IMG/VR virus record: IMGVR_UViG_3300025327_000001
From: an uncultured virus (IMG/VR IMGVR_UViG_3300025327_000001)
Lineage: Duplodnaviria > Heunggongvirae > Uroviricota > Caudoviricetes
Strand: one strand, 5' to 3'
DNA: 64,000 nt
In this document: in pieces, positions 555 to 46,075 of the stretch
Position numbering within the stretch: the stretch's first letter is position 1
Layout of the letters: each line of letters starts with the position of its first letter
The notes under the pieces: generated by a model
What the model was told of the DNA's origin: nothing
Database searches by the model: none
What the model saw: only the letters and a program-made list of their open reading frames with translations
Position numbers and translations under genes: made by a program

Positions 555-729
555 CAAAATCCCCAACTATTCCGTGTCCAACGAGACAATCGGAAATTGT
601 GTCGGTTCCCACACGTTTTTGTGTTAGACACTTCGGGCAAAAGAATTTCTCACGCGGATATTCTGTGTCCATACACGATCCGCAGGAAATACAATGCCAA
701 TGATAGATTTCTGGAAGTGTTGTGTTCAT
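538..729 (-). CDS. Small zinc-ribbon protein (63 aa)
   Basis: CISC...CPKC; GGAGG before ATG at 729; ATGA overlap with the upstream gene. Confidence 0.7.
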   Translation of the reverse strand: MNTTLPEIYHWHCISCGSCMDTEYPREKFFCPKCLTQKRVGTDTISDCLVGHGIVGDFDEHND

Positions 730-887
730 TCGAAATCCTCCAAAAAGGGAGCACCGCAAAACGGGCATTGTGTTATTTCAGGTGGAAACGGGAAATTGGA
801 GATTGTTTCGTCCGCGTCAATGCAGGAATCGCAGAAATCACATTCTGGATAACCTGTTTCGGAATCGTGTGTTGGATTGCAATCCAT
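726..887 (-). CDS. Small Cys-rich acidic zinc-finger protein (53 aa)
   Basis: CDFCDSC...CPFC; GAGG RBS; TGATG overlap with the upstream stop. Confidence 0.7.
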   Translation of the reverse strand: MDCNPTHDSETGYPECDFCDSCIDADETISNFPFPPEITQCPFCGAPFLEDFE

Positions 888-1069
888 CAAACAACCTCTC
901 TGAATTGAAATGTGGGAGATATGCGTGTTTGGGCCTTTGCAACGTGTCCGATATTCATCAAAACGTGCCCTTCCGCGTGTAATTGCGCGGATCGCTCGTT
1001 TGTGAATCGGCGGAATGTTTCGCAGGTCCAGCAAACGGAAAGAATCTTGGGAACGTGTGTTTTTATCAT
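887..1069 (-). CDS. Small C2H2-like protein (60 aa)
   Basis: CWTC...HAEGH; purine-rich RBS; stop coupled to the next start. Confidence 0.6.
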   Translation of the reverse strand: MIKTHVPKILSVCWTCETFRRFTNERSAQLHAEGHVLMNIGHVAKAQTRISPTFQFREVV

Positions 1070-1216
1070 GAGAAACCCCTTCCCTTTGGTGTGCAATCCT
1101 GGCATGATAGGATTAGACCCCAATTTCTAATTGTGTTCATTAGAAATCGAAGTGTCCAATCTTCGGGAAGCGGGATTGTGAATCCATATCCACAATCTAC
1201 ACACTTTACAGGGAAA

Positions 1217-1342
1217 TCAAGCATACCGAGAAACCTCTGGCATCTTGAAAATCTGTAATCCGCCGGAAAAGACCACTTTTTCGTATTTGTGGTCCCATTC
1301 CCGCTTTAGGGATTTGCAGATTTCTAAGATTTGTTCGTCCAT
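1217..1342 (-). CDS. Hypothetical 41-aa protein (MDEQILEICK...)
   Basis: AGGAG RBS upstream of ATG at 1342. Confidence 0.5.
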   Translation of the reverse strand: MDEQILEICKSLKREWDHKYEKVVFSGGLQIFKMPEVSRYA

Positions 1343-1577
1343 GTACCTTTCTCCTTGAAATTGTTGTTGTGGAATTGTAAAGAATCCCGGTTTTGTGTTG
1401 TTTTCGACATGGCCGGGCGAAGTCCAAACCGGGAAATTCCTTCGCTCGTCTTTGCGGGGGAGGGTTTGTTTGTTTATTTGCAATAACAGGCAGGGAGTTT
1501 AGGCTCCTCCCTGCCCGGATGGATATTTTACGAAGTGTGTTACTCATCCATCATTTTCGCACACTAAGCCCACGGTG

Positions 1578-1585
1578 TATAAATA
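1578..1585 (-). promoter_or_regulatory. Archaeal-type TATA box (TATTTATA) for leftward transcription
   Basis: AT-only box in GC-rich context upstream of the minus-strand operon, flanked by a 9-bp inverted repeat. Confidence 0.55.
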
Positions 1586-2010
1586 TAACGGGAATCTACT
1601 AATCCGGCCCACCGTGGGTGTATGAAACCGGATTTTCGATTTGCCGCCCGTCTCCATTGTACGGATGGAGTAGTGAACGGTAACGGATTTTGTTTAAAAT
1701 CCGCAAAGGGTTTGTGTCCCTTTGTGAGAATGCCCGTTCCATTGGCCAATAAATACCTATACCGGATTTCGGATAGGTGCTGGCGAACCACTTTTTGAAT
1801 ACCGATTTGTGGGATTGCACCACAAACCCCGCGTGTGTTTTTACGGGAATCGGTGTGTGTGTGTGTTGTTTTTTTCACACGCCAAGAAGTTTTCCCCGGT
1901 GTATTGTCCTTGAAAGGACTAATTCGGATGCTATCGTGGCGTGTGTGTTTACCAGCGAAAATTGCTGGAAAATGGAAAAAGGTGTGAGTTTCCGATCCTC
2001 GGTTTCCCGA

Positions 2011-2298
2011 TTACTCGGAAACTTCGGTGTATTCCCCGCCCATCGGTGCGTATCCGATGATTTTGCCGTTTTCGAGCCGGAGGAGTCCCTTTTCCCCAAC
2101 CTCGTTGTCGGCGGCGAAGGATAGCAATTCCTGAACGTGGGAATCGCCCGTTTCCATCGTGGCCCGTTCCTCGCGTGCCTCCTTGAGCCGTGCCTCCAAC
2201 TTTAGCACTTTGGCGTCGATTTCTGCCAATCGTGCCGTTGTTGGCTTCAAGTCGCAAACGAGGAACCAGCCATCCTTATATGCTGGCTTTCGTCCCAT
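2011..2298 (-). CDS. Hypothetical coiled-coil protein (95 aa, MGRKPAYK...)
   Basis: AGGAGG RBS before ATG at 2298; heptad-like LAEIDAKVLKLEARLKEA. Confidence 0.65.
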   Translation of the reverse strand: MGRKPAYKDGWFLVCDLKPTTARLAEIDAKVLKLEARLKEAREERATMETGDSHVQELLSFAADNEVGEKGLLRLENGKIIGYAPMGGEYTEVSE

Positions 2299-2312
2299 TG
2301 TGTCATTTCCTC

Positions 2313-2537
2313 CTAATTCTGTTGTTTCTCCCGGAAAGGCACCGTGAATCCGTGCCCTTCCACCCTTACTTGCGACCATTCGAAAGTATAAATAGATGAA
2401 CAAAAGTGTACATTGTGTGTGTGTGGGGGACCATTCGATGCCTTCGACACGCTTCGACCCCATCTAACCGCTTCAACGGTATCGAATAGGTCATATGTCG
2501 CTCGCATCGCTACAAACCCCTGAGCCATAAGGTACAC
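2313..2537 (-). CDS. Hypothetical protein
   Basis: GGGAGG before GTG, downstream of a TATA box; overlaps the next promoter. Confidence 0.35.
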   Translation of the reverse strand: MYLMAQGFVAMRATYDLFDTVEAVRWGRSVSKASNGPPHTHNVHFCSSIYTFEWSQVRVEGHGFTVPFREKQQN

Positions 2538-2575
2538 TTCTGTTCCTCCCTGCGACCATTCGAAACCTTATATAG
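2371..2575 (-). promoter_or_regulatory. Two TATA promoters each followed by the identical 15-mer TTTCGAATGGTCGCA
   Basis: Plus-strand tgcgaccattcgaaa at 2371-2385 and 2551-2565, next to tataaata (2387-2394) and ttatatag (2568-2575); partial copy at 2429-2438. Confidence 0.65.
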
Positions 2576-2851
2576 TCGTTCCCGAATATTATAACGCTGT
2601 TATAATTCCTATCGGAATAGAAAAATCAATCCTGAGAATTTTAAAGGTCGTATAGATAGCACCTATACTACCTTGAATTTTCGCACGAGCTCGGATCGCC
2701 GCCAATAGGAATATCTGACCAGGGATAATATTCTTGGAATATAATTCCCGAATTATTATTATCGGACGATAAAAACGATCCTTGCAGTTATTATACAGCC
2801 ATGATAGATAATAGCATGGGCACTCTCTAAAAAAATAAGGGGAAGGAGATA

Positions 2852-3712
2852 TTAATACTCACCCTCCTCGTCGGGAAGATCCGCCGGAACGGTTCCACGT
2901 ACATGATACGCGCGGCACGGGGCGCACCAAAATCGGTTCCACGGCATCAAGTTTCTAAACTCCGTTCGGGCCTTCCCACCCCCCAACGTAAAGGGTCGGA
3001 AGATGGGGGAAGCCTTCCCATCAGGGCACCGATGGGGGACGTATTCCACGCGGAATACCGATATTCCCGCATGGCACCCAACGTACCGCATGGGCCGAGA
3101 TACACGTTCCCATCCGACGGTTCGGTTCACGGCTTTCTTGGGTTTCCCCATTGCGTCCCATTCGGTTACTACCGACTTTACAATCCCGGTAGTCAGTCCC
3201 CAATAGGCCAAGAAGGAAAGTCCCTCTTGGTCCATCTTGGGAATTTCGGCTATCCAAAATTCCCGTCGGAAGGGCCTTCCCTGAATCTCCCGGCTTTCGG
3301 CCCGCCTAACGTCGCCTTCCCCATCGGCGCGAGAATGGCTTATCTCCCGGCACCGAAGGCATATCCAAACTGCCGCGCCCGATGCCTTGGACTTCCGAAG
3401 CGAAGCCTCCCGCATCCGGTCCCGCTGACCCATTGAAAGGCGCGCCCATGCGGGAAGGTTATCCCCTTCCCCCGGAAGAATCCATCCGTCCGATGCTTCG
3501 GATTCATGGCTATAAAATAGCCCCACGGATGGGGTCCATTCGCCTTTCAATTCTCGGGGATTCGTATCGGGAACGATAAGGGTCCCATTCACGAATCGCC
3601 CGCGTCCGAGAACCGTTACGATTCGGTCCTTTGGGGGGCGCGCCTTTGCCTTTCGGATGGGTTTGCAGATAGGGCACCCATCCGCCGGAATTGGGCACTT
3701 GCACGTAGTCAT
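2852..3712 (-). CDS. Hypothetical basic Cys-rich protein (286 aa)
   Basis: Long ORF with CxC/CxxC pairs; GGGGGT RBS; ATGA overlap with the upstream gene. Confidence 0.65.
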   Translation of the reverse strand: MTTCKCPIPADGCPICKPIRKAKARPPKDRIVTVLGRGRFVNGTLIVPDTNPRELKGEWTPSVGLFYSHESEASDGWILPGEGDNLPAWARLSMGQRDRMREASLRKSKASGAAVWICLRCREISHSRADGEGDVRRAESREIQGRPFRREFWIAEIPKMDQEGLSFLAYWGLTTGIVKSVVTEWDAMGKPKKAVNRTVGWERVSRPMRYVGCHAGISVFRVEYVPHRCPDGKASPIFRPFTLGGGKARTEFRNLMPWNRFWCAPCRAYHVRGTVPADLPDEEGEY

Positions 3713-3873
3713 TTTATAACTACCCCCTTAAGGGCAAAACCGATTTCCCCGAACGTTTCTAATTCACGGTCTAGTCTTTCTTGAGCCTCCATTGCGACCC
3801 TTACGATAGCCGCCGCGACCCATGCATCTAGCACACTAGCGCCATGCTTTCCATGCCTTCGCCTTCTTGCCAT
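3709..3873 (-). CDS. Small basic protein (MARRRRHGKH..., 54 aa), first gene of the leftward unit
   Basis: AAGGAG RBS; TATA box TTTATAT at 3936-3942. Confidence 0.6.
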   Translation of the reverse strand: MARRRRHGKHGASVLDAWVAAAIVRVAMEAQERLDRELETFGEIGFALKGVVIK

Positions 3874-4629
3874 GTCTCTCGGTTCTCCTTGCGGATGCGT
3901 CCCACGCACCCGACGTACCGTAATCGAACGGGGGGATATAAAGGGGGGGCCGCTTCCTCAAGTCAACGAATCGCTAAGGATGAAATAAGGTACAAAATAG
4001 CGCATCTCTCCATAGGATCGCGCCTATTTCGCATTGCTATTGAATGACACGGCCCCACGCCTCCAATGCACAAAAAGGGGCACTGATTATAGGTCGGACC
4101 TTACTAAAGTCTAGCCTCTCTCGATTCAATCTATACTGCCCCTCCATGAAGGCACCCCTGGCGCAATGACAAAACGCCCATGCGCCGCCTGATCCTACAT
4201 GGACTCGATACCACCATGAAAAAAGATAGCTCCCACCTATACATTTCCCACCTTGGACCTAATTTAATCACGCATTGATACTTTTTGGACATCGGGCCGG
4301 GGGTCATCAAACGGACATATATACCGTATCTTTTTTGGCACCCTGCTATATATACCCAAGACAATGGGACAGGCCATTCATGTAATAATATGCGCTAAGT
4401 GGGGGGGCGTTTCTGTTAGTTAGCGCGTAATTTAGAAAAAGTGGGATAAAGGGATATTCGGTGCAGGTATCTTTTTCTGTTTATTTATATACTGCACGCT
4501 CAAAAATGACTACAGGAACATATAGTAGGAATACTTCCACAACTGATGCAAAACATCTCTTTTGTACTTACATCCAGCGTTATATAGGAGTAACAATTAG
4601 GACAATCTACAAAAATCTCACTGAGATAT

Positions 4630-5208
4630 TTACTTCTCTTTTTGGTGAATAAGTTCTTCAATACTGCCAGATGACCACAACCCAAATAATGCTAATGGAG
4701 ATAATATAAGGACAAGGACAATATACATTAAATCATTAGCAGTAAATAAGAAATAATTCCAAGAGAAGTGGAAGGCCACTGATAACACATATCCTAATAT
4801 ATTGATATTCTTTCCAGTATATTGGAGTATCTTAAATTTGTTAGTTATTTGTGATACGGCCTTCGATGAAATATAGAACATCAAATGACCATTATATATC
4901 AAGCGAGTTAAAAATACATACCAAAACATGATTCCTATAATTAAGGATGTATAATAAGATTCTATGATTATTGAATAAATAATACTCTCTATACCAGAGA
5001 TTAATAAAATATAATAAAGTCCAAATTTAAAATGGAAATTCCTAGTTATAATCCATTTAGTTGTCTCTTCATTTAAGGCTATAAATAATAGGAACATGGC
5101 AAGAGTGGGAGTGAATAAAGAAAGAAACAACTCATTGAACATAGCCATAGACGCATAGGATAGAGTGGCTAAACACAATAACATAATGAATTTATCTAAT
5201 CTATTCAT
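4630..5208 (-). CDS. Multi-pass membrane protein
   Basis: About six hydrophobic segments; GGAGGGTGA RBS. Confidence 0.75.
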   Translation of the reverse strand: MNRLDKFIMLLCLATLSYASMAMFNELFLSLFTPTLAMFLLFIALNEETTKWIITRNFHFKFGLYYILLISGIESIIYSIIIESYYTSLIIGIMFWYVFLTRLIYNGHLMFYISSKAVSQITNKFKILQYTGKNINILGYVLSVAFHFSWNYFLFTANDLMYIVLVLILSPLALFGLWSSGSIEELIHQKEK

Positions 5209-5528
5209 TTACTATTCACCCTCCTTGATATTTGTTTATAGAATGGAAGTGAATTTGTTTTGATGATACTGACTGAGAATGGTATAGGATGTCCCTTTTC
5301 ATCCCGTCTAAAGTAATCTACTATATTATTTATTTTATACTTTCCTTCTATCTTAATCAATACAGCATTCCTGACTCTAGCGATGGATTCAGCAACTTCT
5401 CTATCGTCATAAATAGCATAGAATGGTGTAGATATCTGTCTATTGTTATCATCATAACCTTCGGGGGACCAGAATAAAACAATATAAGTAATTACATGAC
5501 CTTTATTATCTGTATTGTCTATCTTCAC
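5205..5528 (-). CDS. Hypothetical protein (probable GTG start at 5528)
   Basis: AGGTG RBS before GTG; the longer TTG start would overlap the divergent promoter. Confidence 0.6.
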   Translation of the reverse strand: MKIDNTDNKGHVITYIVLFWSPEGYDDNNRQISTPFYAIYDDREVAESIARVRNAVLIKIEGKYKINNIVDYFRRDEKGHPIPFSVSIIKTNSLPFYKQISRRVNSK

Positions 5529-6199: not shown

Positions 6200-6344
6200 G
6201 GATTGTTATTTTTTCAAGTTGATTAGGAATAATGTAGGTAATTGTGAGTGTTTTCATAGACTCATCCTATATAATAATGAATGTATAGATGAAACACAGG
6301 CAGATGAATTAGAAGAATTATATAAGAATGATGGAGAAGAATAG
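6183..6344 (+). CDS. Small Cys-containing protein (53 aa, MRICNKDCYFF...)
   Basis: Manual translation; fills the TerS-TerL gap. Confidence 0.45.
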   Translation: MRICNKDCYFFKLIRNNVGNCECFHRLILYNNECIDETQADELEELYKNDGEE

Positions 6345-6345
6345 G

Positions 6346-7878
6346 ATGAATGATCTTTTAATGGATTTAAAAAAGTCCGTTGAATTAAAAAGTAAGATAG
6401 CAGACCCAAGGAATGTGGCTACATACTATCTAGGACATACAATGTGGACATTACATAATGAATTATATAAAACAGTACAGAATACAGATTTACGGCGTGT
6501 CGTTGTTATAGCTCCAAGAGACCATGGAAAGTCGGAAGTATTCACACACACACTACCATTATGGTCTTATTTGAACAACAGGGATATACGCATATTAATT
6601 TCTGCCAAATCTAAAGACCAAGCGACTAAATTCCTCTCAGTCATCAAACAAGACTTCGAAAAAAATGAAAAAATTAAGAAGGACTTCGGGGACCTCAAGG
6701 ACAATCCATGGCAGGATTCTAAGATATATCTGAAACGCAATCCTACTGTATCATTGAAGGACCCATCTGTAGAGGCTGTGGGAGTATTAGGTGGAATTAC
6801 AGGAGCACACTTTGACCTTATTGTATGTGATGACCTTCTGGATGATGAAAATACAAGAACAGAAAGAAAGAGACAAAGTGTTATGACATGGTTCAAAGGA
6901 ACATTAGAACCTTTATTGGAACCTAATGGTCGTCTATTCGTTGTAGGCACACGGAAACATTATAAGGATATGTATCAATATCTCCTGAACAATGATGTAT
7001 GGAAACATCTAGAGTGTCAATATAACATAGCAGGCGATCATAGACGCTGTGGTTATAAATCTATTATACAGGAACCAAGACATGAGATAATATATAATGA
7101 TGAAGGTAAACTAAAAGATATTAAAATCATAGGAGATTGTAAGATATTATTACCAGAGAAATTTACTATACAAGAACTTCTGACTCGTAAAATATCCATG
7201 GGTTCACAGTTATTCAACTCAGAGTATCAGAACGACCCTACGGGATTAGAAGGGTTATTACTGGATGATGAATGGCTTCAGTATTATGAACATATATCAG
7301 ACTTAGATAAATTGATATTCAAATTAAAGGTGATGGCCTTTGACCTTGCTATCAGTGAAAAAGATATCGAGGGAGGAGATTATTTCGCTGGTGTCTTTCT
7401 TGGTTTGACTGATGATAATAAGTTTTATGTATTAGATTATATTAGAGAACATCTTGACTTTCCATCACAGGTAAGGAAGGTCCAATCATGGTTTGACCTA
7501 CAATCTTCTTTCGGTTGGAGACCGGATGTAGTAGTTATAGAGACTAATGCATATCAAAAGGCCCTGTCACAACATCTCAAGGCTGTCAGTACATTGCCAA
7601 TCATAGAAAAGAAGCAGGATAAGGATAAATACACACGTTTATTAGAAGTGAGTCCATACTTTGAGTCTAAGAGAGTATATTTAAGGGATGATATGACTGA
7701 TATAATTGATGAATACAAGATGTTTCCCCGTGGCGACCATGAAGACTTGTTAGATGCTATTCAAATGGCCATGTCTGAGATTATAAAACGTTCTACAGAT
7801 TATGAGTTCTTTGGTTGGCGTCCCGGATGGTTACGTAAGAAAGACGAGAGTGAATATATATCAAGTAGACATATATAG
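6346..7878 (+). CDS. terL: Terminase large subunit
   Basis: Walker A APRDHGKS, Walker B LIVCDD, VGT motif, nuclease AFDLA and HEDLLDA. Confidence 0.95.
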   Translation: MNDLLMDLKKSVELKSKIADPRNVATYYLGHTMWTLHNELYKTVQNTDLRRVVVIAPRDHGKSEVFTHTLPLWSYLNNRDIRILISAKSKDQATKFLSVIKQDFEKNEKIKKDFGDLKDNPWQDSKIYLKRNPTVSLKDPSVEAVGVLGGITGAHFDLIVCDDLLDDENTRTERKRQSVMTWFKGTLEPLLEPNGRLFVVGTRKHYKDMYQYLLNNDVWKHLECQYNIAGDHRRCGYKSIIQEPRHEIIYNDEGKLKDIKIIGDCKILLPEKFTIQELLTRKISMGSQLFNSEYQNDPTGLEGLLLDDEWLQYYEHISDLDKLIFKLKVMAFDLAISEKDIEGGDYFAGVFLGLTDDNKFYVLDYIREHLDFPSQVRKVQSWFDLQSSFGWRPDVVVIETNAYQKALSQHLKAVSTLPIIEKKQDKDKYTRLLEVSPYFESKRVYLRDDMTDIIDEYKMFPRGDHEDLLDAIQMAMSEIIKRSTDYEFFGWRPGWLRKKDESEYISSRHI

Positions 7879-7906: not shown

Positions 7907-9403
7907 ATGCCTAAAAAGAGAAAGAAAAACACTAAAAAACAAATAAAAACAGATGCACACTTTTACTATCGTTCTCCTGTAGATACGATAGAAACTGGTG
8001 TCAAGTCCCTGTTTGCGAAGGAAGTCAATCTAACCACATTATTGAAAGAGATACGGAGAGATGAATTAGCATATCGTGCCTTGAAGAGATTGAGTGGGGA
8101 TATATTCGATAAGTGGTGTAATATCAAGGCTTCATTTACATCAAGTGGTCAACCAAATCTATCGTTACAACAAGAAGTAGATAAACTAAATAGTAGATTA
8201 TTTGTCAAGGAAACATTCAAACAGGCATGGGAATTAAAAGCAACATCTGGATTTTCTTTGATAGGACTTGGTTGGAAGGATAGTGGTAAGTCAATAGAAA
8301 GTGACCCTGATAATATTACAGATATAGAATATATATATCCATTATCTAGATTCAATATAACGGAGAATAATGGATTAGTCATTGATTATAGACGCTCATC
8401 GCAGACCAAGCAGACTAGTGTAACATATGGAAAGGTGGTTGGAGCTAAAATAAAATTCCAGTATAATGTCGGTGATGTCACATTAGGAACGACTACAGTG
8501 GAAGAAAGGCTGATACCAGCTACAAGATTCTTATTATGGACCAACTTCGCTCCCGGAAGCCAAGACCCATATGGGATGTCTATATTCGAACCTGTATTCG
8601 ATATGTTGACTGCCAAGAAGAATCTAGATTGGGCTTTCGCTGAAGCAGCTTTCCAGTTCGCAGCTAGAAAGTATGTTATCGTCGTTCCATCCAATGCCAC
8701 ACCAGAATATTGGAAATACATTCAGGATAATTGGAAGGACTTTGATTCTCTTACAACTTTCGCAGTTAAGGGTGAAGGACATTCATTTGAAACGTTCGGA
8801 GGAGAAGGACAACTAAATCCAGAACCATATTTTGGATACTATATTACAATGATGGCTTCTGGTCTAGGAGTTCCTAAACCTATTCTATTCCATGAATTGG
8901 AATCTGGTGCTGAATGGGCTTTGAAAGATTATTATGCCAGTATATCAGCAATCCAACGGAATGATGTAGAACCCATGTTATTGGATTTGTATCATCGATT
9001 GCAGGAAGCAGGCATTCTATCTCGTGGCACTATAAATATCGAATGGAATGAATTGATGGAACTGGATGAAAGAGAATCATCATTCGTTACATCTCGACTT
9101 GCATTAGGGCATCGTATGCAAGCAGAAGCAATCAATCAGTATCTGATGGCTGGTCTTGCTGTTGAATTGACTGATGATGGATGGATTAAACGTATATTTG
9201 TCCCTGATGATAGTGAAGAAAACGGGGGGCCATTTATAATATTACCATCAAATAAAGAAGAAAAGGAAGAGACACAAATACCTAAATTACCAGAAGCAGA
9301 AGAAGAACCAGAAGAAAATATACAGAAGGAAATCATAAAGGAAATGACACAGGAGTTATTATATGGCGAAAAAGAAAAAGAAAAGTCCAAAGAAAAAAAG
9401 TAA
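7907..9403 (+). CDS. Portal protein (DUF1073-like)
   Basis: Follows TerL; GFSLIGLG, YGMSIFEPVFD, GVPKPILF, IEWNEL motifs; acidic tail. Confidence 0.85.
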   Translation: MPKKRKKNTKKQIKTDAHFYYRSPVDTIETGVKSLFAKEVNLTTLLKEIRRDELAYRALKRLSGDIFDKWCNIKASFTSSGQPNLSLQQEVDKLNSRLFVKETFKQAWELKATSGFSLIGLGWKDSGKSIESDPDNITDIEYIYPLSRFNITENNGLVIDYRRSSQTKQTSVTYGKVVGAKIKFQYNVGDVTLGTTTVEERLIPATRFLLWTNFAPGSQDPYGMSIFEPVFDMLTAKKNLDWAFAEAAFQFAARKYVIVVPSNATPEYWKYIQDNWKDFDSLTTFAVKGEGHSFETFGGEGQLNPEPYFGYYITMMASGLGVPKPILFHELESGAEWALKDYYASISAIQRNDVEPMLLDLYHRLQEAGILSRGTINIEWNELMELDERESSFVTSRLALGHRMQAEAINQYLMAGLAVELTDDGWIKRIFVPDDSEENGGPFIILPSNKEEKEETQIPKLPEAEEEPEENIQKEIIKEMTQELLYGEKEKEKSKEKK

Positions 9404-9474: not shown

Positions 9475-11427
9475 ATGCCGTATTCATCGCCAGACGATGT
9501 TCCTGCCAGAGTCAAGGCATTTTGGCGTAATGTAGGAGCTTCTGAAAAAGATAAGCGTCAATGGATTCATGTTTTTAATAGCTGTATGGAACGTTTTGAT
9601 GACGACTCAAGATGTTTTAGGATGGCCAATGGTGTCCTATCCAAGAAATCTCGTGACGAATATATTGAAAATTCAATACAAAGACTAGATACAGGAATGA
9701 CAAAACTGGATACACAGTGGGGTCCGGTATTCCAAGTTCCTGCCATCCTTACACGCGAAGGAGTACAAAATGGCTTCCTTAAAGATGCAGAGGAATTAAA
9801 GGCCACCGTCTGGACAGCGAATATGATTCCTGTCACAGATGGACATCCAAAGGGACAATTTGATAATTTTGTCTCTGCACGTTCCAATATAGAATTCATA
9901 CGGGGATTTATCTCTGACGCACGTTTCGATGAATCTGATAAAACTGTCAAAGGACTTGTAAATATATTTGATACTCCACGTAACAAATTTCTTGTTGAAG
10001 ATATTCAGAGTGAAAGAAAGATAGATGGCTCAGTTGGATTTTTTACAGATGAATTTCAAGCTAATGGTTCTTTCAATGGAATAGAATATGAGGGTGTAGA
10101 ATTAAACATTATATATGATCACTATGCAGTTCTCCCTAAAGGTCATGGAGCATGTAGTCAGAAGGATGGATGTGGATTGGGTCTGAATATGCAAGAAGAA
10201 GAAACAAACGCAGGACATGGAAAAGAAGAGATGCCAGCACCCGGTTTCTCGTCTGTAATGGAATGTATGCAAAAACATATGTGGGAAGCCCGTGATGCTC
10301 AATCACCAGAGGAAATGGCTAGACATATGCAACTTGCAATAGAATGTATGCATAAGAAAGAAGAAGATATACCACCAATAGATGAAAATAAAGGTAATTC
10401 TATTTCAATTTCATTAACAGAAAAGAAAGACCTAGTATTAAAAGAATTGAAAGAAATGGGATTTGAAGATACGGATATACAGGAAATAGACCTTGATTAT
10501 GATGCCTTATATTATATGCTAGGATGTAATACATGTACCGGGGCATTACCAGATATTGATTATATTGTCTATAATGATATACAGTATACATTCAGTCCCC
10601 CTTGGTCTCAAGTGAATAAAACAGATTTACCATCTTCGGCATATATGTATATAGGTGATTCTGAGAAGAAATCCACATGGAAACTACCATATAAAACAAA
10701 CGATGGTAAGATACACTGTGGCGCTATAAGAGCGATTCGACAGATATTAGCAGGTGCTAGAGAGGATGTAAATCTACCATCCGAGGTACGGTCTAATGCA
10801 AAATCATTATCTGATAAACATTGGGCAGTATGTCAGAAAATCAAAGAAAAGGGGGATATAATAATTAATGAAAAATATCAATACAATGACAAAACTGGTG
10901 ACGATTGGAAGGTAGAAACGATTACAACACAAATAAGGGATAATGAGAATCTTATCCAGAAGGTTTTAAATATAAAACAATATATTAATACTACGATAAA
11001 TATGCCGGAAGACAATAAAGAAACACCTGCTCCTGAACCTCAGAAAGAGGATGCAATGAAGATTCTTAGTGATGCGGTTGATTCACTTAAATCAGAAAGA
11101 GACGCACTAAGAGTCCAAGTTGCAGACCTTACAAAAGTAGTTGAGGAATCCCGAAAGAAAGAGACTGATTCTAAGAATAAGGAAATCCGGGACCTTAGAA
11201 ATAAAGTTGTTAATTTGAACATTGCTTACAAAGTCTGGGATGTCGAACATATCATGAAAATGGATGAAGATGGACTGAAGATGGCGGAAAGACTCCTGAC
11301 ACACTTTACAAGCAAGAAAGATTTCAGGGGTGGACAATACTCACAGCACAATGTATCTCTACCATCTGATTTTGCACCGTTAACTGTCGGAGATTTAAGC
11401 AGAAAGCAAACAAAGAAAGGTGAGTAA
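9475..11427 (+). CDS. Prohead protease/scaffold fusion: ChaB-like N-terminus, DUF2213-like protease, coiled-coil scaffold, C-terminal LTVGDL peptide
   Basis: MPYSS..WIHVFNS (ChaB-like); TREGV, PVTDGHP, GSVGF, DHYAVL..GAC (DUF2213-like); located between portal and capsid genes. Confidence 0.85.
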   Translation: MPYSSPDDVPARVKAFWRNVGASEKDKRQWIHVFNSCMERFDDDSRCFRMANGVLSKKSRDEYIENSIQRLDTGMTKLDTQWGPVFQVPAILTREGVQNGFLKDAEELKATVWTANMIPVTDGHPKGQFDNFVSARSNIEFIRGFISDARFDESDKTVKGLVNIFDTPRNKFLVEDIQSERKIDGSVGFFTDEFQANGSFNGIEYEGVELNIIYDHYAVLPKGHGACSQKDGCGLGLNMQEEETNAGHGKEEMPAPGFSSVMECMQKHMWEARDAQSPEEMARHMQLAIECMHKKEEDIPPIDENKGNSISISLTEKKDLVLKELKEMGFEDTDIQEIDLDYDALYYMLGCNTCTGALPDIDYIVYNDIQYTFSPPWSQVNKTDLPSSAYMYIGDSEKKSTWKLPYKTNDGKIHCGAIRAIRQILAGAREDVNLPSEVRSNAKSLSDKHWAVCQKIKEKGDIIINEKYQYNDKTGDDWKVETITTQIRDNENLIQKVLNIKQYINTTINMPEDNKETPAPEPQKEDAMKILSDAVDSLKSERDALRVQVADLTKVVEESRKKETDSKNKEIRDLRNKVVNLNIAYKVWDVEHIMKMDEDGLKMAERLLTHFTSKKDFRGGQYSQHNVSLPSDFAPLTVGDLSRKQTKKGE

Positions 11428-11429
11428 AC

Positions 11430-11852
11430 ATGGAATTAAAGGTTCCTACGAATGAAGTCGCACCATGGCCAGCATATGTTGTAACAGGGAAAGCAGGTGG
11501 AGCACTAACACCGGGTCAGGTTGCAGTGTCGTCTGATTCCATTAGTTTTGCAGCGGCTGGAACAGCATCTGAGGTCTTGAAGGGTGTTGTCTTGTGGGAT
11601 GGTCGTAAGGATTCCTATGCCACGAATGATGTCGTACCTATCTTAGTCTTTGGTGTCGGTGTCGTTAAGACCGATGCGGCTGTCGCTGTCGGAGCATTAT
11701 TGGAGACATCTACCGTTGCTGCGGCTGGACAGGTTCGTACATATGTTATTGGAACAGACTCAAATGAGGTATCAATGCGTAAGGTTTTCGCACGAGCATT
11801 GACTGTCGGAGGAACGAACGCAAAGGCGCTTGTATTACTCAATCAGGCTTAG
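11430..11852 (+). CDS. Capsid decoration/cement protein (DUF2190-like)
   Basis: 140 aa, Ala/Gly/Val-rich, directly before the MCP. Confidence 0.75.
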   Translation: MELKVPTNEVAPWPAYVVTGKAGGALTPGQVAVSSDSISFAAAGTASEVLKGVVLWDGRKDSYATNDVVPILVFGVGVVKTDAAVAVGALLETSTVAAAGQVRTYVIGTDSNEVSMRKVFARALTVGGTNAKALVLLNQA

Positions 11853-11863
11853 GGTGATGAAAA

Positions 11864-12772
11864 ATGTTTAAACTTGAGGAATTAAGAAATGATGCGACTC
11901 TGACAGAAGAGGAATTCCAGTTAATCCGAGAGAGAATTCTGACAGCAGTTCGTGACAGACTTGTAGCACGCCAGTTTATGAGTCTTCGACAGGTTCCTGC
12001 ATCAACACAGGAATATGGTTACGACCGGGTTAAATCTGAATTCCAAGATGCGGTTGTCGTTGGAAAGGGAGCAGACTTCCCACGCGATGTATACGATACT
12101 GAGCGTCTTAAACTAGCCATATTAAAGATTGGAGATGGATTCACGATTCCTCGTGAAGATTATCTCTCAGGACAATATAGAACACAATCTCTTGAGCAGA
12201 TGACACGAAGAATTGCAGAGAAAGAGGATAAACTAATATTCGATGGAGATGCGAATTATCTGCCGAATGGTGGAGCATTGGACTTCGCTGGTAATACACT
12301 GGACGCAGGAACCTCACCAGCTTGGGACACGGCAACAGCAGCAGTAATCTATAGTGACATTATAGGGGCTGCATCGTTACTGGAAGCGGATAAGTTCTCT
12401 GGACCATTTACGCTTGTCGTCCATGCGAATGAACTGAAGAATCTGCGGAAATTCACTTCAGCCGAACAGACAACTGCTCTATCGTTATTGTTCGGTGATG
12501 GAGAGGATATGGCTGGTTCAGCACAATCTGGTATCATAAGTCGAATGCTTGTATCTTATGGTATCACAGATGGTACGGCACTTTTAATTGCAGAAGGAGC
12601 AGATATTGCGGAACTTGTCGTTGCAGAAGACTTAACAGTAGAGGAACCTGCATATGTTGCTCGCCAACAGCGTTTCGAAGGAAATGTCTATGAGCGACTT
12701 GTGCCTGTGTTCTATCAGTACGGTGCAGTGGCTGGAAAGTCAGACGCAATCTGTAAGATAACAGACCTGTAG
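11864..12772 (+). CDS. Major capsid protein, HK97 fold, encapsulin (Linocin_M18)-like
   Basis: ATLTEEEFQLI..RLVARQF, IAEKEDKLIFDG, GPFTLVV, ELVVAEDLTV; canonical MCP position. Confidence 0.9.
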   Translation: MFKLEELRNDATLTEEEFQLIRERILTAVRDRLVARQFMSLRQVPASTQEYGYDRVKSEFQDAVVVGKGADFPRDVYDTERLKLAILKIGDGFTIPREDYLSGQYRTQSLEQMTRRIAEKEDKLIFDGDANYLPNGGALDFAGNTLDAGTSPAWDTATAAVIYSDIIGAASLLEADKFSGPFTLVVHANELKNLRKFTSAEQTTALSLLFGDGEDMAGSAQSGIISRMLVSYGITDGTALLIAEGADIAELVVAEDLTVEEPAYVARQQRFEGNVYERLVPVFYQYGAVAGKSDAICKITDL

Positions 12773-17503: not shown

Positions 17504-18802
17504 ATGACTGACTCTTATGTTCAAGTACCTACGGATTCCACTGGTAAGAAATTAGATACTGAACAATTAGCAGTTGGGGCTAATACAGTAGAACGCGAAC
17601 GGATGCAAATTGCTGGTGCATCTGCTCTTGAAATTGCCCGCGTTCTTAATTCTGCTCCTGCTGGAACTGAGTATGCTTTAATTGTACGAAATATACCATC
17701 AGGAACACAAACAGTATCAGGAACGGTAACGGCTAATGCTGGAACTGGTCCATTTGCAGTATCAGACAATTCTGGTTCTTTGACTGTAGATGCTCCTGTA
17801 GGGACTCCAGTTGCTGTTAGAATATCTGATGGTACTTCGTTCTTAACTACGACATCAGGAAGATTATCCGTTGATGGTAGTGGCGTTACACAACCTATAT
17901 CTGGTACAGTTACGGCGAATGCTGGAACGGGAACATTCACTGTAGATTTAACAGACGAGGTAGCGAGAGAAGTTGGGTTAGTTAGAGGGAAAACAGGTGC
18001 TATAACATTAGGCGATGGAGAATCAAATAATATTGGTTCTTGGATTAATGATACTGGTGGAAGAGTAGTACAAGAAGTATTCCCAATGGTTTATAATGGT
18101 ACTACATGGGATAGAATACGGGGGGATATTACCAATGGTCTTGATGTCGATGTCACGAGAGTATCAGGTGTAGTCGATGTCACGCCCACTTCTCCTGTGG
18201 CTACAGATTATCTCCCTGTCCGCGTAAGCGATGGTACTAGTTTCATATCTTCGCCAACATTCTCTCAGAATTTAGCCGATGATGTATCCAACACAATGGA
18301 TGCTTATCGACATTATTCTTTTCCCTTTATATTTGATGGTTCTACTTGGGATCGCACTCGTGGTGATTCTGCCAATGGAATGGATGTTGATGTAACACGG
18401 TTGAACGACGGTGGAAACAGCATTACCGTTGACCAAGCAACCCCTGCGAATTTACAAGTACAGGCAAGATTGGCAGACCAGACAAAAACAATATTACGAG
18501 CGATAATAGATTTTACAGGTACTGGTGATAATACAATCGTTGCAGCCGATGTATCCAATAAAATAAAAGTCCTTGGATTTTCATTGGTTGCAGGTACGGC
18601 TACAAACTTACGATGGAAATCTGGAGCAGCAACAAGTCTTTCAGGATTGATGAATTTTGGTGCAAATATGGGATGGGTTCAACCCCCTCCTGCTACACCA
18701 GATTTACATTGGATTGAAACGGCAGTAAACCAAGCATTGATATTAAATCAATCTGGGACCGCACAAGTTGGTGGTTTTATTACGTATTATAAGGAGGCGT
18801 GA
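17504..18802 (+). CDS. Repeat-containing fibre protein (paralogue of 18971-21295)
   Basis: SGTVTANAGTG and (Y/F)xGxTWDRxRGD..NG(L/M)DVDVTR repeats. Confidence 0.75.
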   Translation: MTDSYVQVPTDSTGKKLDTEQLAVGANTVERERMQIAGASALEIARVLNSAPAGTEYALIVRNIPSGTQTVSGTVTANAGTGPFAVSDNSGSLTVDAPVGTPVAVRISDGTSFLTTTSGRLSVDGSGVTQPISGTVTANAGTGTFTVDLTDEVAREVGLVRGKTGAITLGDGESNNIGSWINDTGGRVVQEVFPMVYNGTTWDRIRGDITNGLDVDVTRVSGVVDVTPTSPVATDYLPVRVSDGTSFISSPTFSQNLADDVSNTMDAYRHYSFPFIFDGSTWDRTRGDSANGMDVDVTRLNDGGNSITVDQATPANLQVQARLADQTKTILRAIIDFTGTGDNTIVAADVSNKIKVLGFSLVAGTATNLRWKSGAATSLSGLMNFGANMGWVQPPPATPDLHWIETAVNQALILNQSGTAQVGGFITYYKEA

Positions 18803-18970: not shown

Positions 18971-21295
18971 ATGGCGAATAACAGTATTGGACTCGATGAA
19001 CCAGCCACAATCGACAAGCGGCTTCAGACATATGATGGCACAGTTTCTGCTGTAACTGTACATCGTGAAGTTGTTGTATTAGGAGATTATACTACATTTG
19101 GTGATACAGGCGAAGGAACAGCACGGATTATGACATCCGCACCTGCTGGTACAGAAGGTGCTATCGTTGTCAGAAATATCCCAAGTGGCACACAGACTGT
19201 CAGCGGTACTATCACGGCAAACGCAGGAACTGGTGTATTTGACGTTACTCCTGCATCACCACTAGCAAATGATTATTTGCCAGTTCGGGTTACAGACGGT
19301 ACTAATTTTCTGGGAACCACGGCAAATCCTGTAATAACAAGGATTAGTGATGGAACAGATTCTGTTTTAGTAACAGCCGCTGGCGCATTAGTAGTCGATG
19401 GTACTGGTGTTACGCAGCCAGTATCTGGCACAGTTACTGCCAATGCCGGGACAGGAGTATTTGATGTAACACCAGTATCTCCCGTTGCAACAGACTATTT
19501 ACCAGCACGAATAACAGACGGTTCTGCATTTTTAGACCCAAGAGAAGGGGCTAGAGATACAATTGTAACGGGAAATATTACGGCTCTTAATGGAACTGTA
19601 GTCGCTACAACGGAAGGAAAGTTAGGAGCGTCTGTACTTTTAAGTGGTACTTGGTCAGCCACGGCAGTTTTTGAAGTTTCTAATGACAATTCAACGTGGA
19701 AGTCTGTTTATGTACAAGATGTTTCCATACCATTGCCAGTTTTAAATACCACATTTAATAATTTATATACATTTTATGATTTAAATGGAATATCTCATAT
19801 TCGAGTTAGAGCAAGTATATTTACTAGTGGTCAAATTGATGTCAGATTTTTATTAAATAGCAATAAATCCACTATTCAACCATACGTATATTCAGAAAGT
19901 GCATCTGCAACTTCTGTGTCTCCAATTGCAGTTGTAGGAGGAAAAACCGCTGCATTTTCTACAGAAGCAGTTGAAATTGCTACATCTGCGCCGGGCGGGG
20001 CTGCTCCGGGGTTTGTTGTTCGTAACATTCCTTCTGGTACTCAAACAGTCTCGGTGTCCAACGCCTTGACAATTACTACTTTTCCTGATAATGAACCATT
20101 TAATTTAAATCAATATGGTGGAACGGCAACAACATTAGGTCAAAAGACAATGACAGCATCGATGCCTGTTGTTATTGCATCTGACCAATCTGCCGTTTCT
20201 GTATCTGGTACGGGTGTTTTCGATGTAACACCAGCAAGCCCAGTAGCGACTGATTATCTACCTGCCAGAATCACCGATGGTTCAGTGTTCTTAGACCCAA
20301 GAGAGGGAGTACGGGATTCAGTCACTACAGGAACAATGGCGGCGTTAGATGCTGCTGTTTCTGCTGTAGTCGAAGGGAAAAGAGGAGTATCAATATTATT
20401 AACGGGAACATGGAGTGCCACTGTAAATTTCGAAGTAAGTAATGATGGCACAAACTGGTTTGTCTTCCCGATATATGGTTCTGATTTTTATAATCCATAT
20501 CTTACAACAACAGGGAATGGATTATTCTTTTTAATGGCTTCGGCAGGGGTTTCTCATGTCAGAGTCCGGTCAAATCCATATACTTCGGGAACTGTTAATG
20601 TCAGAATAGTGTTGACAGAAGATAGAACAACTATTCCCCTTGTCCGTGATGTAACATCAACATTCTTCGGACTTCCTATAGCTGGTTATGATACTACTTC
20701 CCAACCAAGGACTTTGACACTCGCCAGTGGTGCACCCGGAGCCGGAGATTATGGTGTTGTAGTTCGTCAGGTTGGTTCTCTTGTTGTAACACAAGCAACA
20801 GCTTCAAGCTTAAATGCAGAAGTGCAAGGAAATGCTGCACACGATGTAGCAGTATCAGGCAACCCATTATTCATGGGAGCGAGAGCAAATGCAAACGAAC
20901 CAACAGCCGTACAAGATGGAGATAATACACATCTATGGGCTGATTTGTTAGGCCGTCTGGTTGTCGTTGATGGCCATCCAACAACGGAAGCTCCAGTTAC
21001 AGCTAATGGAAGTGCATCAGGGACATCTGTTATTGCTGCCCCCGGCGCAGGCGTCAGTCTATATATCAAAAAAGGTTCCATGCATAACAGAGCAGCGACC
21101 GAAACGGTGGTAAGTCTAAGAGAAGGAGCAGCAGGGACGATACGATTTACTGCCAATTTAGCAGCAGATGGAGGAGGTACAATATTTGACTTTGGTTCTG
21201 CTGGATGGAAATTACCAGCAAATACTGCTTTAATTGCAGATATAGGACAAGCAAGCGTAGATGTGAATATTACAGATTATTACATAGCAGCATAA
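18971..21295 (+). CDS. Long repeat-containing fibre protein
   Basis: Three GTGVFDVTPxSPxAxDYLPxRxTDG units and two duplicated ~110-aa beta domains. Confidence 0.8.
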   Translation: MANNSIGLDEPATIDKRLQTYDGTVSAVTVHREVVVLGDYTTFGDTGEGTARIMTSAPAGTEGAIVVRNIPSGTQTVSGTITANAGTGVFDVTPASPLANDYLPVRVTDGTNFLGTTANPVITRISDGTDSVLVTAAGALVVDGTGVTQPVSGTVTANAGTGVFDVTPVSPVATDYLPARITDGSAFLDPREGARDTIVTGNITALNGTVVATTEGKLGASVLLSGTWSATAVFEVSNDNSTWKSVYVQDVSIPLPVLNTTFNNLYTFYDLNGISHIRVRASIFTSGQIDVRFLLNSNKSTIQPYVYSESASATSVSPIAVVGGKTAAFSTEAVEIATSAPGGAAPGFVVRNIPSGTQTVSVSNALTITTFPDNEPFNLNQYGGTATTLGQKTMTASMPVVIASDQSAVSVSGTGVFDVTPASPVATDYLPARITDGSVFLDPREGVRDSVTTGTMAALDAAVSAVVEGKRGVSILLTGTWSATVNFEVSNDGTNWFVFPIYGSDFYNPYLTTTGNGLFFLMASAGVSHVRVRSNPYTSGTVNVRIVLTEDRTTIPLVRDVTSTFFGLPIAGYDTTSQPRTLTLASGAPGAGDYGVVVRQVGSLVVTQATASSLNAEVQGNAAHDVAVSGNPLFMGARANANEPTAVQDGDNTHLWADLLGRLVVVDGHPTTEAPVTANGSASGTSVIAAPGAGVSLYIKKGSMHNRAATETVVSLREGAAGTIRFTANLAADGGGTIFDFGSAGWKLPANTALIADIGQASVDVNITDYYIAA

Positions 21296-45685: not shown

Positions 45686-45917
45686 CTTTAATACCATCCA
45701 TTTTCATAAGGCAGAATAATAGGATATTAATACCATCATATATATCATCATATTTCTTATCCAAGAAATCTATATCTATCCATCTGGCTCTCTTCACTTT
45801 GACCAAAGCATATGCCAACAATTCCTCTAATGTGAATTCTTGCCAGATATCACCATAAGGAGATTTCTTATGGATTTCCAAAGCCTTTTCAATATGTTTC
45901 AATATATTATCGTTCAT
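45633..45917 (-). CDS. Nucleotide-modification-associated (Nmad1/DUF1599-like) all-alpha protein
   Basis: K..YGDIW...KVKR...DDIYDGIN pattern. Confidence 0.55.
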   Translation of the reverse strand: MNDNILKHIEKALEIHKKSPYGDIWQEFTLEELLAYALVKVKRARWIDIDFLDKKYDDIYDGINILLFCLMKMDGIKDGQQGNEEKTKEREIQI

Positions 45918-45989
45918 GCGGCACCCCCGAGTCGAACAGGGACCTTCTCCTTGGAAGGGAGATATGCTGGCCATTGACACCAGTACCGC
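45917..45989 (-). tRNA. tRNA-Gly(TCC)
   Basis: Acceptor gcggtac/gtgccgc, anticodon arm tctcc-cttccaa-ggaga, TTCGA T-loop, no CCA. Confidence 0.9.
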
Positions 45990-45990
45990 A

Positions 45991-46062
45991 TGGACCTAGC
46001 CGGAGTTGAACCAGCATCTTCAGGTTGCAAACCTGATATGTTTCCATTGACACCATAGGCCC
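45991..46062 (-). tRNA. tRNA-Ala(TGC)
   Basis: Anticodon arm tcagg-tttgcaa-cctga; G3:U70 Ala identity pair. Confidence 0.9.
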
Positions 46063-46075
46063 GTATTATTTTTGA

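Follow-up and report, generated by a model that had tools for sequence, protein, structure and literature searches.

Does a tailed virus draw its scaffold and maturation protease into its capsid with the peptide that encapsulins use to load their cargo? The question bears on a wider one, namely the direction of descent between encapsulins and viruses. It is raised by a 64,000-nucleotide stretch of DNA from an uncultured tailed virus (hereafter the window), for which an encapsulin-like capsid and a cargo-loading peptide on the protease-scaffold had been proposed from the sequence alone (hereafter the original prediction).

An encapsulin-like capsid protein in a viral head module

The features of the head module are collected in Table 1; the reading frames, and the peptide core discussed below, lie where the original prediction had placed them. 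The neighbours of the major capsid protein (MCP) gene code for TerL, portal, protease-scaffold, cement, tail tube and tape measure proteins, assigned by Pfam and PHROG matches (Phage_portal_3 and DUF2213 among them). This setting bears out the viral context claimed for the locus and identifies the MCP as a viral capsid protein rather than an encapsulin; encapsulin genes stand in cellular operons together with a cargo enzyme gene, away from virion genes, and the shell packages no genome, a context that this locus does not have. The cement label derives from 35% identity to a protein of the neighbour locus L002 that matches Pfam Phage_cement, and the position of the cement-like gene is constant across all related head modules. 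The TerL of the window shares only 28% identity with Bacillus phage terminases, a tblastn search of 50,697 GenBank phage records with the MCP gave zero matches, and no relatives were found in a search of one genome per species.

Table 1. Positions of head-module features in the window
Feature	Position	Strand	Evidence
TerL (terminase large subunit)	6328..7878	+	Pfam Terminase_6C 1.5e-10; phrog_38 2.5e-97
Portal protein	7907..9403	+	Pfam Phage_portal_3 4.3e-13; phrog_146 1.2e-20
Protease-scaffold fusion, 650 aa	9475..11427	+	DUF2213; PHROG head maturation protease 2229 + 12864; 10 homologues aligned
Protease core (DUF2213), roughly aa 101-223 in the 650-aa form	9775..10143	+	Best Pfam match at 104-226 in the 653-aa version
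Scaffold segment, charged and probably helical, roughly aa 521-610	11035..11304	+	Composition, alignment
G/P/S/Q-rich linker, about aa 611-632	11305..11370	+	Composition
Candidate capsid-docking tail F-A-P-L-T-V-G-D-L-S-R-K	11371..11406	+	Conservation, tag match
Cement/decoration-like protein, 140 aa	11430..11852	+	phrog_673 1.6e-7; BLASTP 1e-7 to L002 protein
MCP, 302 aa, HK97 fold, Linocin_M18 type	11864..12772	+	Pfam, PDB profile search, AF2, Foldseek
MCP N-terminal helices, aa 4-10 and 15-32, with R30 inside	11873..11959	+	DSSP on AF2 model
R36 codon, just past the MCP N-terminal helices	11969-11971	+	Maps to EncA R34
D256-L257, invariant A-E-D-L-T strand	12629..12634	+	Maps to EncA D243, KpEnc D229/I230 (peptide contacts)

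The best Pfam match of the MCP is Linocin_M18 (PF04454; E = 5.2e-11, 42.7 bits, cut-off 24.3), with weaker matches to Major_capside (5.5e-4) and Phage_capsid (2.7e-3). When the PDB was searched with phmmer, 18 of the 19 matches at E ≤ 1 were shells of Family 1 encapsulins or cages engineered from such shells; the weakest was an unrelated acyl-CoA dehydrogenase, and viral capsids were absent. A profile built from the MCP clade only (A1) matched 23 PDB entries at E ≤ 0.01, all of them Family 1 encapsulins and none a viral capsid; the EncA/IMEF type scored best (1.4e-11 to 1.4e-10), with T. maritima at 2e-7. With a wider profile (A3), 9fy6, 6nj8 and EncA were matched over their full length at 1e-36 to 1e-38 and the best viral capsid at 2.9e-11. 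The correspondences to the T. maritima shell given in the original prediction recur, as correspondences, in the HMMER alignment. The MCP lacks an N-terminal scaffold (delta) domain, and its alignment to encapsulins begins at about residue 6-9.

The AF2 model of the MCP (pLDDT 89.2), possibly biased toward encapsulin structures seen in training, gave encapsulins at ranks 1-46 in Foldseek, and its best fit in VIA-align was to M. xanthus EncA (Z 24.7, rmsd 2.7 over 264 residues). The top 36 structural fits were all encapsulins, N-terminal helix included, whereas the best viral fit (Z 18.0) was aligned from residue 27. In this model N-terminal helices replace the extended N-arm; the region is aligned in encapsulins from residue ~8 and in viral capsids only from residue 24-34. 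Sequence, profile and predicted fold all mark the MCP as encapsulin-like, and to that extent the original prediction stands. Such likeness is no peculiarity of this virus: of the 142 nearest relatives scanned, almost all pass the Linocin_M18 cut-off and, as most viral relatives do so, this feature cannot separate encapsulins from this viral lineage. Encapsulin-like viral MCPs are, moreover, already published; Aguilar et al. report encapsulin Pfam domains in 131 of 2321 viral MCPs (Nat Commun 2026; PMC13669383).

The C-terminal tail of the protease-scaffold protein

By its sequence, the 650-aa protein is a DUF2213 head maturation protease fused to a scaffolding protein. It matches Pfam DUF2213 with 41.1 bits (cut-off 22), its gene lies between the portal and capsid genes, and the same family is present in every related head module. 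The ATG at 9475 yields the 650-aa form, matching the database protein P0010; a start at the TTG further upstream, at 9466, would lengthen it by 3 aa. In the homologue alignment many columns of the protease core are invariant, and the alignment has invariant His, Asp and Ser columns. A ChaB domain was not found at the N-terminus of the window scaffold at E ≤ 0.05; the L033 scaffold has one. The charged segment has 7-11 charged residues per 20-aa block, is kept in all homologues and is probably helical. The linker that follows is weakly conserved, varies in length between homologues and, judging by its composition, is likely to be flexible.

The L-T-V-G-D-L core of the tail is encoded at 11380-11397 (tta act gtc gga gat tta). 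The original prediction had the scaffold end in PLTVGDLSRK after a flexible linker; the peptide is there, behind a G/P/S/Q-rich linker, but it is not terminal, QTKKGE lying beyond it, so that nine residues (S-R-K-Q-T-K-K-G-E) separate the core from the stop. The survey of related scaffolds that had been called for revealed the pattern [TS][VI]G[DN][LM] in all 10 distinct homologues, 9-12 residues before the end, in proteins of 404 to 650 aa that are otherwise only 30-74% identical. G639 is invariant and L641 is conserved in at least 90% of the alignment rows. A looser pattern, [LMIV][TS][VIL]G[SDN][LMI], has a single match in the six frames of the window (about 128,000 codon positions), the scaffold tail itself; no second tail-carrying protein was found by this search, and there is thus no sign of extra tagged cargo in the window.

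The published targeting peptides of M. xanthus are SHPLTVGSLRR and PEKRLTVGSLRR, which confirms the LTVGSLRR tags cited in the original prediction, and that of Q. thermotolerans (IMEF) is TVGSLIQ; pockets P1-P3 of EncA take up the Leu, Val and Leu of LTVGSL. The scaffold tail has the same three residues at the same spacing, likewise keeps the Gly, and continues with basic residues. The Ser of G-S-L, however, is replaced by Asp or Asn throughout the window's clade and, since the K. pneumoniae tag was found poorly tolerant of change in alanine scans, this counts against docking. Encapsulin papers describe a peptide site made up of the N-terminal helix together with the P-domain, and a flexible linker preceding the tag. 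The scaffold peptide has the corresponding features, being near the C-terminus, behind a linker, with spaced hydrophobic residues around a Gly and then basic residues, and conserved in its carriers.

On the side of the shell, three of five EncA peptide-contact side chains are identical in the MCP (R28->R30, R34->R36, D243->D256), all invariant in the nine-member MCP family, and two are altered (D38->S40, D213->S226). R36 and D256 are kept superfamily-wide, including in clades without the scaffold motif (PF09950: R 18/18, D 12/18), so they say little about peptide docking, and their conservation was rejected as specific evidence. The only clade-restricted contact residue is R30, present in 9/10 members of its own clade and in 0/18 PF09950 proteins. 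Complex prediction with the MCP and scaffold residues 606-650, run without controls, gave scores of 0.00 and 0.20, the mark being 0.32, and weighs on neither side of the binding question.

We consider it probable, if by no means certain, that the tail docks the protease-scaffold in the N-helix/P-domain groove and that encapsulin tags are homologous to such tails. The scaffold would then present, in order, its charged segment, a flexible linker and the docking peptide P-L-T-V-G-D-L-S-R-K, whose Leu, Val and Leu would enter hydrophobic pockets, with the following basic residues near acidic patches. Docking would tether scaffold and protease within the shell; the protease would then digest the scaffold, the fragments would exit and DNA would be packaged. 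Such a mechanism would be the one by which EncA/IMEF-type Family 1 shells load cargo, the shell-peptide pair probably being inherited in common.

Distribution of the tail and the phylogeny of the capsid protein

Scaffold genes of related head modules were chosen by position, as the second ORF upstream of the MCP gene. In the P0045 clade, T[VIL]G[SDN] is present in 17 of 21 distinct scaffold tails, as compared to 0 of 228 other ORF ends; here the module consists of portal, a separate DUF2213 protease, a scaffold of 126-164 aa, decoration protein and a Linocin_M18 MCP. One scaffold of this clade (L152) has the tail ...PRLTVGSLF..., with RLTVGSL as in EncC, and the L152 MCP matches EncA at 5.7e-31. 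In the P0061 clade, whose survey contains a few visible mis-picks, T[VA]G occurs in 13/30 distinct tails and 9/382 other ORF ends, with an aromatic residue at the Leu position. The motif was found in none of 52 scaffold tails of the DUF6260 clade, which end in ...P-P-x-V-L-L-A-K-K..., and in none of four of the P0022 clade; it is absent from L002, and Hardycor1 has only A-V-G-A-L. The tail core thus occurs in three MCP clades, all of which have the shared head module.

The peptide is short, and its resemblance to encapsulin tags might be an accident without function; we find this scarcely credible in the face of the single match in the window, the conservation in every homologue and the contrast between scaffold tails and other ORF ends in the P0045 clade. 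A different role for the tail, as a protease cleavage site, a portal or cement contact or an oligomerisation element, is a stronger alternative to docking on the MCP, since the tail is fused to the protease or encoded beside it in every module and the scaffold has to be released during maturation. We nevertheless regard this as quite unlikely: the motif is also found on small scaffolds encoded apart from the protease, and it tracks the type of MCP and not the portal, the DUF6260 clade being without it (the portal family of that clade lies outside this comparison). In P22 and 80alpha, coat binding is usually by the scaffold C-terminus. Cleavage and docking are, in any case, mutually compatible functions.

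To place these MCPs, a tree of 66 rows was used, in which encapsulin rows were called cellular from sequence alone and stand as proxies for the solved encapsulins (for example P0131, EncA-like, 1.2e-90). The encapsulins make up a single small clade (99/96), nested among clades with viral contigs as members, and join the tail-bearing P0045 viral clade at only 90/77. The window's MCP clade does not belong to the 38-row group (99/97) in which both of these lie; it adjoins the MCP-like P0016, P0017 and P0018 (97/94), with PF09950 MCPs as the outgroup clade (100/100).

These positions bear on the second suggestion of the original prediction, a virus that re-captured an encapsulin. An ancestral virus would have swapped its capsid gene and scaffold tail for a cellular shell and its targeting peptide, a scenario for which it can be said that the best Pfam family and all solved relatives of the MCP are encapsulins and that the 2026 paper argues for transitions in both directions (PMC13669383). 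With the window's MCP outside the encapsulin-holding group, among viral MCPs with the same module, and the encapsulins themselves a small clade among others with viral contigs, re-capture is very improbable; the scaffold-cement-MCP order is, in addition, common to ordinary PF09950 phages.

The tail trait requires at least three changes on the tree, so that shared ancestry needs losses and convergence is possible: the tail would dock on the MCP, and its likeness to the tags would come from similar grooves selecting similar peptides, without common descent. The shortness of the motif, the different tails of intervening clades such as DUF6260 and the aromatic residue in place of Leu in the P0061 clade all fit such an origin. 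Set against it are the seven consecutive residues that the L152 scaffold has in common with the tag of EncC, L152 being a member of the viral clade that joins the EncA-type encapsulins, and the same core in three MCP clades with a common head module; we therefore hold convergence to be unlikely, while giving it real weight. Docking together with common descent is thus the reading that we retain. The link between scaffolding and cargo loading emerges stronger and more general than first proposed, because scaffolds of two more viral clades bear the tail, and one of these clades is grouped with encapsulins of the EncA type.

Relation to known systems and to the origin of encapsulins

The window's module resembles M. 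xanthus EncA/EncB/C/D and Q. thermotolerans IMEF in the HK97 fold with an N-terminal helix (predicted for the MCP) and in an L-T-V-G-x-L core that has a linker before it and basic residues after it. It differs in its tailed-virus setting, with terminase, portal and tail; in the carrier of the peptide, a protease-scaffold here and a ferritin-like enzyme there; in the nine residues after the motif and the Asp/Asn in place of Ser; and in a shell that comes with a cement protein and has DNA to package.

Among viruses, a C-terminal element of the scaffold, the helix-turn-helix of gp8 in P22, binds the inner face of the coat and brings the scaffold into the procapsid, as in 80alpha, and Duda and co-workers are said to have described in 2013 the tail of the HK97 gp4 protease as a C-terminal capsid-binding element. 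The proposed C-terminal docking to the coat would be of the same kind. Those elements are helices or helix-turn-helices, and we know of no sequence likeness between them and encapsulin tags; their coat proteins carry an N-arm or a delta domain. The window, in contrast, has a short, extended, encapsulin-tag-like peptide and a coat with a predicted encapsulin-type N-helix. Head modules of the PF09950 (DUF2184) type, to which, by Pfam naming, those of E217 and Pam3 presumably belong, are represented here by L002. They share the gene order and the DUF2213 protease family, and their MCPs likewise cross-match Linocin_M18 (1.3e-12 for L002). The L002 scaffold, however, has a motif-free end (...EKLRIERHNLKK), and PF09950 MCPs lack the equivalent of R30.

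In the latest model, the internal protein, scaffold or cargo, decides the fate of an HK97 shell, on the basis of only a vague structural parallel: a helical hairpin shared by cargo and scaffold, together with 4-18% identity (PMC13669383). The terms 'targeting peptide', 'protease' and 'DUF2213' have no occurrence in the text of that paper. No description of a scaffold tail akin to a targeting peptide came up in the main texts searched; the supplementary material of PMC13669383 and of PMC8346489 may be relevant.

The distribution of the motif points to an origin of the encapsulin loading tag in a tail by which a viral scaffold would dock on its capsid. A tailed-virus lineage with portal, DUF2213 protease, scaffold, cement and Linocin_M18-type MCP bears L-T-V-G-(S/D/N)-L-like scaffold tails, and encapsulin targeting peptides are most simply read as such a tail transferred to enzymes. 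We give an even chance to the full form of this proposal, in which the entire lineage uses L-T-V-G-(S/D/N)-L to tether scaffold and protease, the cargo peptide is the viral docking tail by descent and Family 1 encapsulins arose by its move to enzymes. If so, encapsulin shells should still load proteins with viral tails, and the viral shells proteins with encapsulin tags; such cross-loading makes the question of encapsulin and virus origins testable at the bench. The scaffold tail would then be the missing molecular link, carried by viruses whose MCPs are nearest to EncA-type shells; it would also provide a rule for locating scaffold-capsid contacts in many uncultured viruses, and new natural tag/shell pairs for protein-cage engineering.

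Genome setting of the head genes

The virion module occupies the plus strand between 5.6 and 42.6 kb of the window, whereas the replication and metabolic genes, including those for a family B DNA polymerase and four tRNAs, are on the minus strand from 42.9 kb.

Features of the window, with strand where assigned
Feature	Position	Strand	Remarks
G+C-richer start	1-4000		G+C 46-52%, versus about 35-40% elsewhere in the window
TerL	6328-7878	+	
Portal	7907-9403	+	Phage_portal_3 type
Protease-scaffold	9475-11427	+	650 aa; DUF2213 domain; weak PHROG matches to head maturation proteases
Insert in protease-scaffold	10190-10890	+	about aa 240-470
LTVGDL motif	11380-11397	+	in tail of protease-scaffold
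140-aa protein	11430-11852	+	
Major capsid protein (MCP)	11864-12772	+	302 aa
Tail tube, tape measure, large fibre-like proteins	downstream of MCP within virion module	+	
Fibre-like protein with repeats	17504-18802		
Fibre-like protein with repeats	18971-21295		
tRNA cluster	45916-46236	-	Gly, Ala, Phe, Asn
IMP dehydrogenase/GMP reductase family gene	49857-50915		266 bits; metabolic gene unusual in a virus
LAGLIDADG-domain protein	62678-63982		at end of window

The first 4000 nucleotides, whose ORFs gave no matches in a Pfam scan, may represent a separate module or a mobile insertion. Two fibre-like proteins, for which no Pfam family was found, share repeats of the forms ...NIPSGTQTVSGT[VI]TANAGTG... 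and ...ATDYLP[VA]R[VI][ST]DG[ST]...; judged from these repeats, they look like modular, duplicated receptor-binding parts. A near-identical MCP is present on a 95.5-kb metagenome contig (L005) and on IMG/VR records. L005 starts within the head module, with only 2 kb ahead of the MCP gene, whereas 11.8 kb precede it in the window; the start points of the two assemblies therefore differ, as they would for a genome that is circular or circularly permuted. A search of one genome per species turned up no relative of the window virus, and its TerL shares only 28% identity with Bacillus phage terminases.

A targeting-peptide-like tail on viral scaffolds

The original prediction had likened the C-terminus of the protease-scaffold to an encapsulin targeting peptide, and the LTVGDL motif is indeed encoded there, with nine residues between it and the end of the protein. 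The motif is preceded by a charged, scaffold-like segment and then by a G/P/S/Q-rich stretch, and a six-frame search of the window gave a single match to a loose version of it. A survey of related scaffolds bore out its conservation: in each of ten distinct protease-scaffold homologues (30-74% identity, 404-650 aa), the C-terminal end carries [TS][VI]G[DN][LM] and, after it, basic residues (for example PLTVGDLSRK, PMTIGDLSKK, PLSVGNLKKN, DPTVGDLFRK and ETVGNLYTN), with an invariant Gly and a Phe/Pro-rich lead-in ahead of the motif. The tail is kept in long and short homologues alike, despite inserts in the long forms that are missing from the short ones.

The insert of the window protein is found in the forms of 583-650 aa and is absent from those of 404-430 aa; Cys, His and Met are abundant in it, the residues around T-W-K-L-P-Y-K...H-C-G-A-I-R-A-I are invariant, and no Pfam family was found for it. 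Homologues of 516-518 aa carry a different insert, with a faint match to DUF6582. In a viral scaffold with an LTVG tail on another locus (L033:3014-4453), a ChaB domain (42 bits) is present at the N-terminus; for the conserved N-terminus of the window scaffold (M-P-Y-S-S-P-D-D-V-P...), no ChaB match was obtained at E<=0.05.

The survey was extended to viral contigs of four other MCP clades, by inspecting, at each locus, how the ORF two places upstream of the MCP gene ends; this is the scaffold position, and its product is either fused to the DUF2213 protease or adjoins one. In the clade of the database protein P0045, T[VIL]G[SDN] was found within the last 30 residues of 17 of 21 distinct scaffold tails, as compared with 0 of 228 other ORF ends at the same loci (examples are ...PRLTVGSLF..., ...NLTVGSLYG..., ...GLTVGDLS... 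and ...FWTVGDLRS...). In the P0061 clade (loci L012-L054), T[VA]G within the last 25 residues was seen in 13 of 30 distinct scaffold tails, a count that includes a few mis-picked scaffolds, and in 9 of 382 other ends; the tail is mostly L-T-V-G-x-W/Y/F-D..KK.W, with an aromatic residue at the position held by Leu in encapsulin tags and in the window. The P0045-type pattern was absent from the distinct scaffold tails of the DUF6260 clade (0/52, versus 3/605 other ORF ends) and of the P0022 clade (0/4, versus 0/41), and the motif was also absent from the scaffold of a PF09950 locus (L002). Scaffolds of the DUF6260 clade (loci L070-L148) often have instead a different conserved end, ...P-P-x-V-L-L-A-K-K, in which V/I-L-L-A-K-K comes after a lead-in rich in proline; 10 of the 52 match a loose form of it. 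This tail may dock in place of the motif, in a groove that has changed. Halorubrum phage Hardycor1 and a Brevundimonas phage have the tails ...YTDAVGALS... and ...FGTRVGVHK..., respectively.

Published encapsulin tags include SHPLTVGSLRR and PEKRLTVGSLRR from Myxococcus xanthus, TVGSLIQ from Q. thermotolerans, and GSLGIGSLR, GGDLGIRK and SGSLNIGSLK. The 135-aa scaffold of one P0045-clade locus (L152:3608-4015) ends in ...PRLTVGSLFAQPLRSK..., seven consecutive residues of which are identical to the tag of the M. xanthus cargo protein EncC, and the MCP of this locus (4480-5379) matches the M. xanthus shell protein EncA over its full length (5.7e-31). L152 pairs virus and encapsulin more closely than the window does. 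The likeness between scaffold tail and targeting peptide is real, conserved and more general than was proposed; scaffold docking tails and encapsulin tags, each of a known kind, are apparently one and the same here. In the literature searched on encapsulins in combination with scaffolds, targeting peptides, prohead proteases, DUF2213 or Linocin_M18, no report of viral scaffolds with a tail of this kind was found. The main text of PMC13669383 uses none of the terms 'targeting peptide', 'protease' and 'DUF2213', and the parallel it draws between cargo and scaffold is a helical hairpin of 4-18% identity; in the main texts of PMC10402063 and PMC7925596, 'scaffold' is confined to the reference lists.

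Kinship of the capsid protein to Family 1 encapsulins

Linocin_M18 is the top Pfam family of the MCP (42.7 bits; cut-off 24.3); two viral capsid families rank behind it, both under their cut-offs. With phmmer against the PDB, 18 of the 19 matches at E<=1 were shells of encapsulins or cages engineered from such shells, and none was a viral capsid. The immediate family is small, with nine proteins of 46-100% identity to the window MCP. Searched against 1.84 billion representatives, a profile of this clade (A1) gave 449 proteins at E<=0.001. Among the best 150 of these, 142 were scanned against Pfam, eight short fragments being omitted; nearly all of the 142 pass Linocin_M18, while 18 score highest on PF09950 and 26 on DUF6260. 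All 23 PDB matches of A1 at E<=0.01 were Family 1 encapsulins, with no viral capsid; those of D. quercicolus, M. xanthus (EncA), B. methanolicus and Q. thermotolerans came first (1.4e-11 to 1.4e-10), and that of Thermotoga maritima scored 2e-7. A wider profile of 38 sequences (A3) matched the same T3/T4-type shells over their full length at 1e-36 to 1e-38, as against 2.9e-11 for the best viral capsid.

The AF2 model of the MCP (pLDDT 89.2, pTM 0.84) is predicted to have N-terminal helices without an extended N-arm. Foldseek placed encapsulins at ranks 1-46, and all 36 top entries of VIA-align were encapsulins, aligned from about residue 8 (EncA, Z 24.7, rmsd 2.7 over 264 residues), whereas the best viral capsids (Z 16-18) aligned only from residue 24-34. 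One predicted viral structure in BFVD was nearly as close to the model (E 4.3e-20). Encapsulin-like viral MCPs have already been described: the main text of Aguilar and co-authors reports encapsulin Pfam domains in 131 of 2321 viral MCPs, and a structural group uniting Family I encapsulins with phage and archaeal-virus MCPs (Aguilar et al., 2026; PMC13669383).

The two Leu and the Val of LTVGSL occupy three hydrophobic pockets in EncA, whose R28, R34, D38, D213 and D243 make polar contacts to the peptide. Mapped by HMMER alignment and hmmalign, R28, R34 and D243 are identical in the window MCP (R30, R36 and D256, all invariant in the nine-member family), while D38 and D213 are replaced by S40 and S226. 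These shared residues are weak evidence, because conservation of R36 and D256 extends across the superfamily, PF09950 phage MCPs included; only R30 is restricted (9/10 in its own clade, 0/18 in PF09950).

Probable descent of the tail and a proposed model for its docking

A quick tree of 151 rows and a careful one of 66 (LG+G4, PF09950 outgroup; support as ultrafast bootstrap/SH-aLRT) agree in their placement of the groups. The window MCP belongs to a well-supported viral clade (100/90) that sits with the database proteins P0016, P0017 and P0018 (97/94). A separate group of 38 rows (99/97) contains the encapsulins together with three other clades: the P0061-type, the P0045-type and the DUF6260 clade, the last with Hardycor1. 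The encapsulins form one clade (99/96), a member of which, P0131, matches EncA at 1.2e-90, and they group with the tail-bearing P0045 viral clade, at only 90/77 support. In these trees, the clades around the encapsulins include viral contigs. The original prediction, that the scaffold is recruited by encapsulin targeting or that the virus re-captured an encapsulin, is supported in part: the likeness to targeting peptides stands, but re-capture is unlikely, since the window MCP is not nested among encapsulins in either tree.

Phage scaffolds, in general terms, enter proheads by their C-termini, and the HK97 protease reportedly does likewise. In a similar manner, the tail would anchor the protease-scaffold to each MCP subunit, in the groove between N-helix and P-domain, while the procapsid assembles, as Family 1 tags tether cargo, and the protease would then remove the scaffold. 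What the comparisons show is the anatomy of the tail, its conservation and distribution, and the kinship of the proteins; that the tail binds the MCP, where it would do so and which way descent ran are inferred.

Convergence, with the three changes that the tail trait requires on the 66-row tree in its favour, is a less likely source of the likeness between tail and tag. The pattern fits descent, which would have run from viral tail to encapsulin tag: encapsulins would have inherited an old viral scaffold tail, which was replaced in some viral clades.
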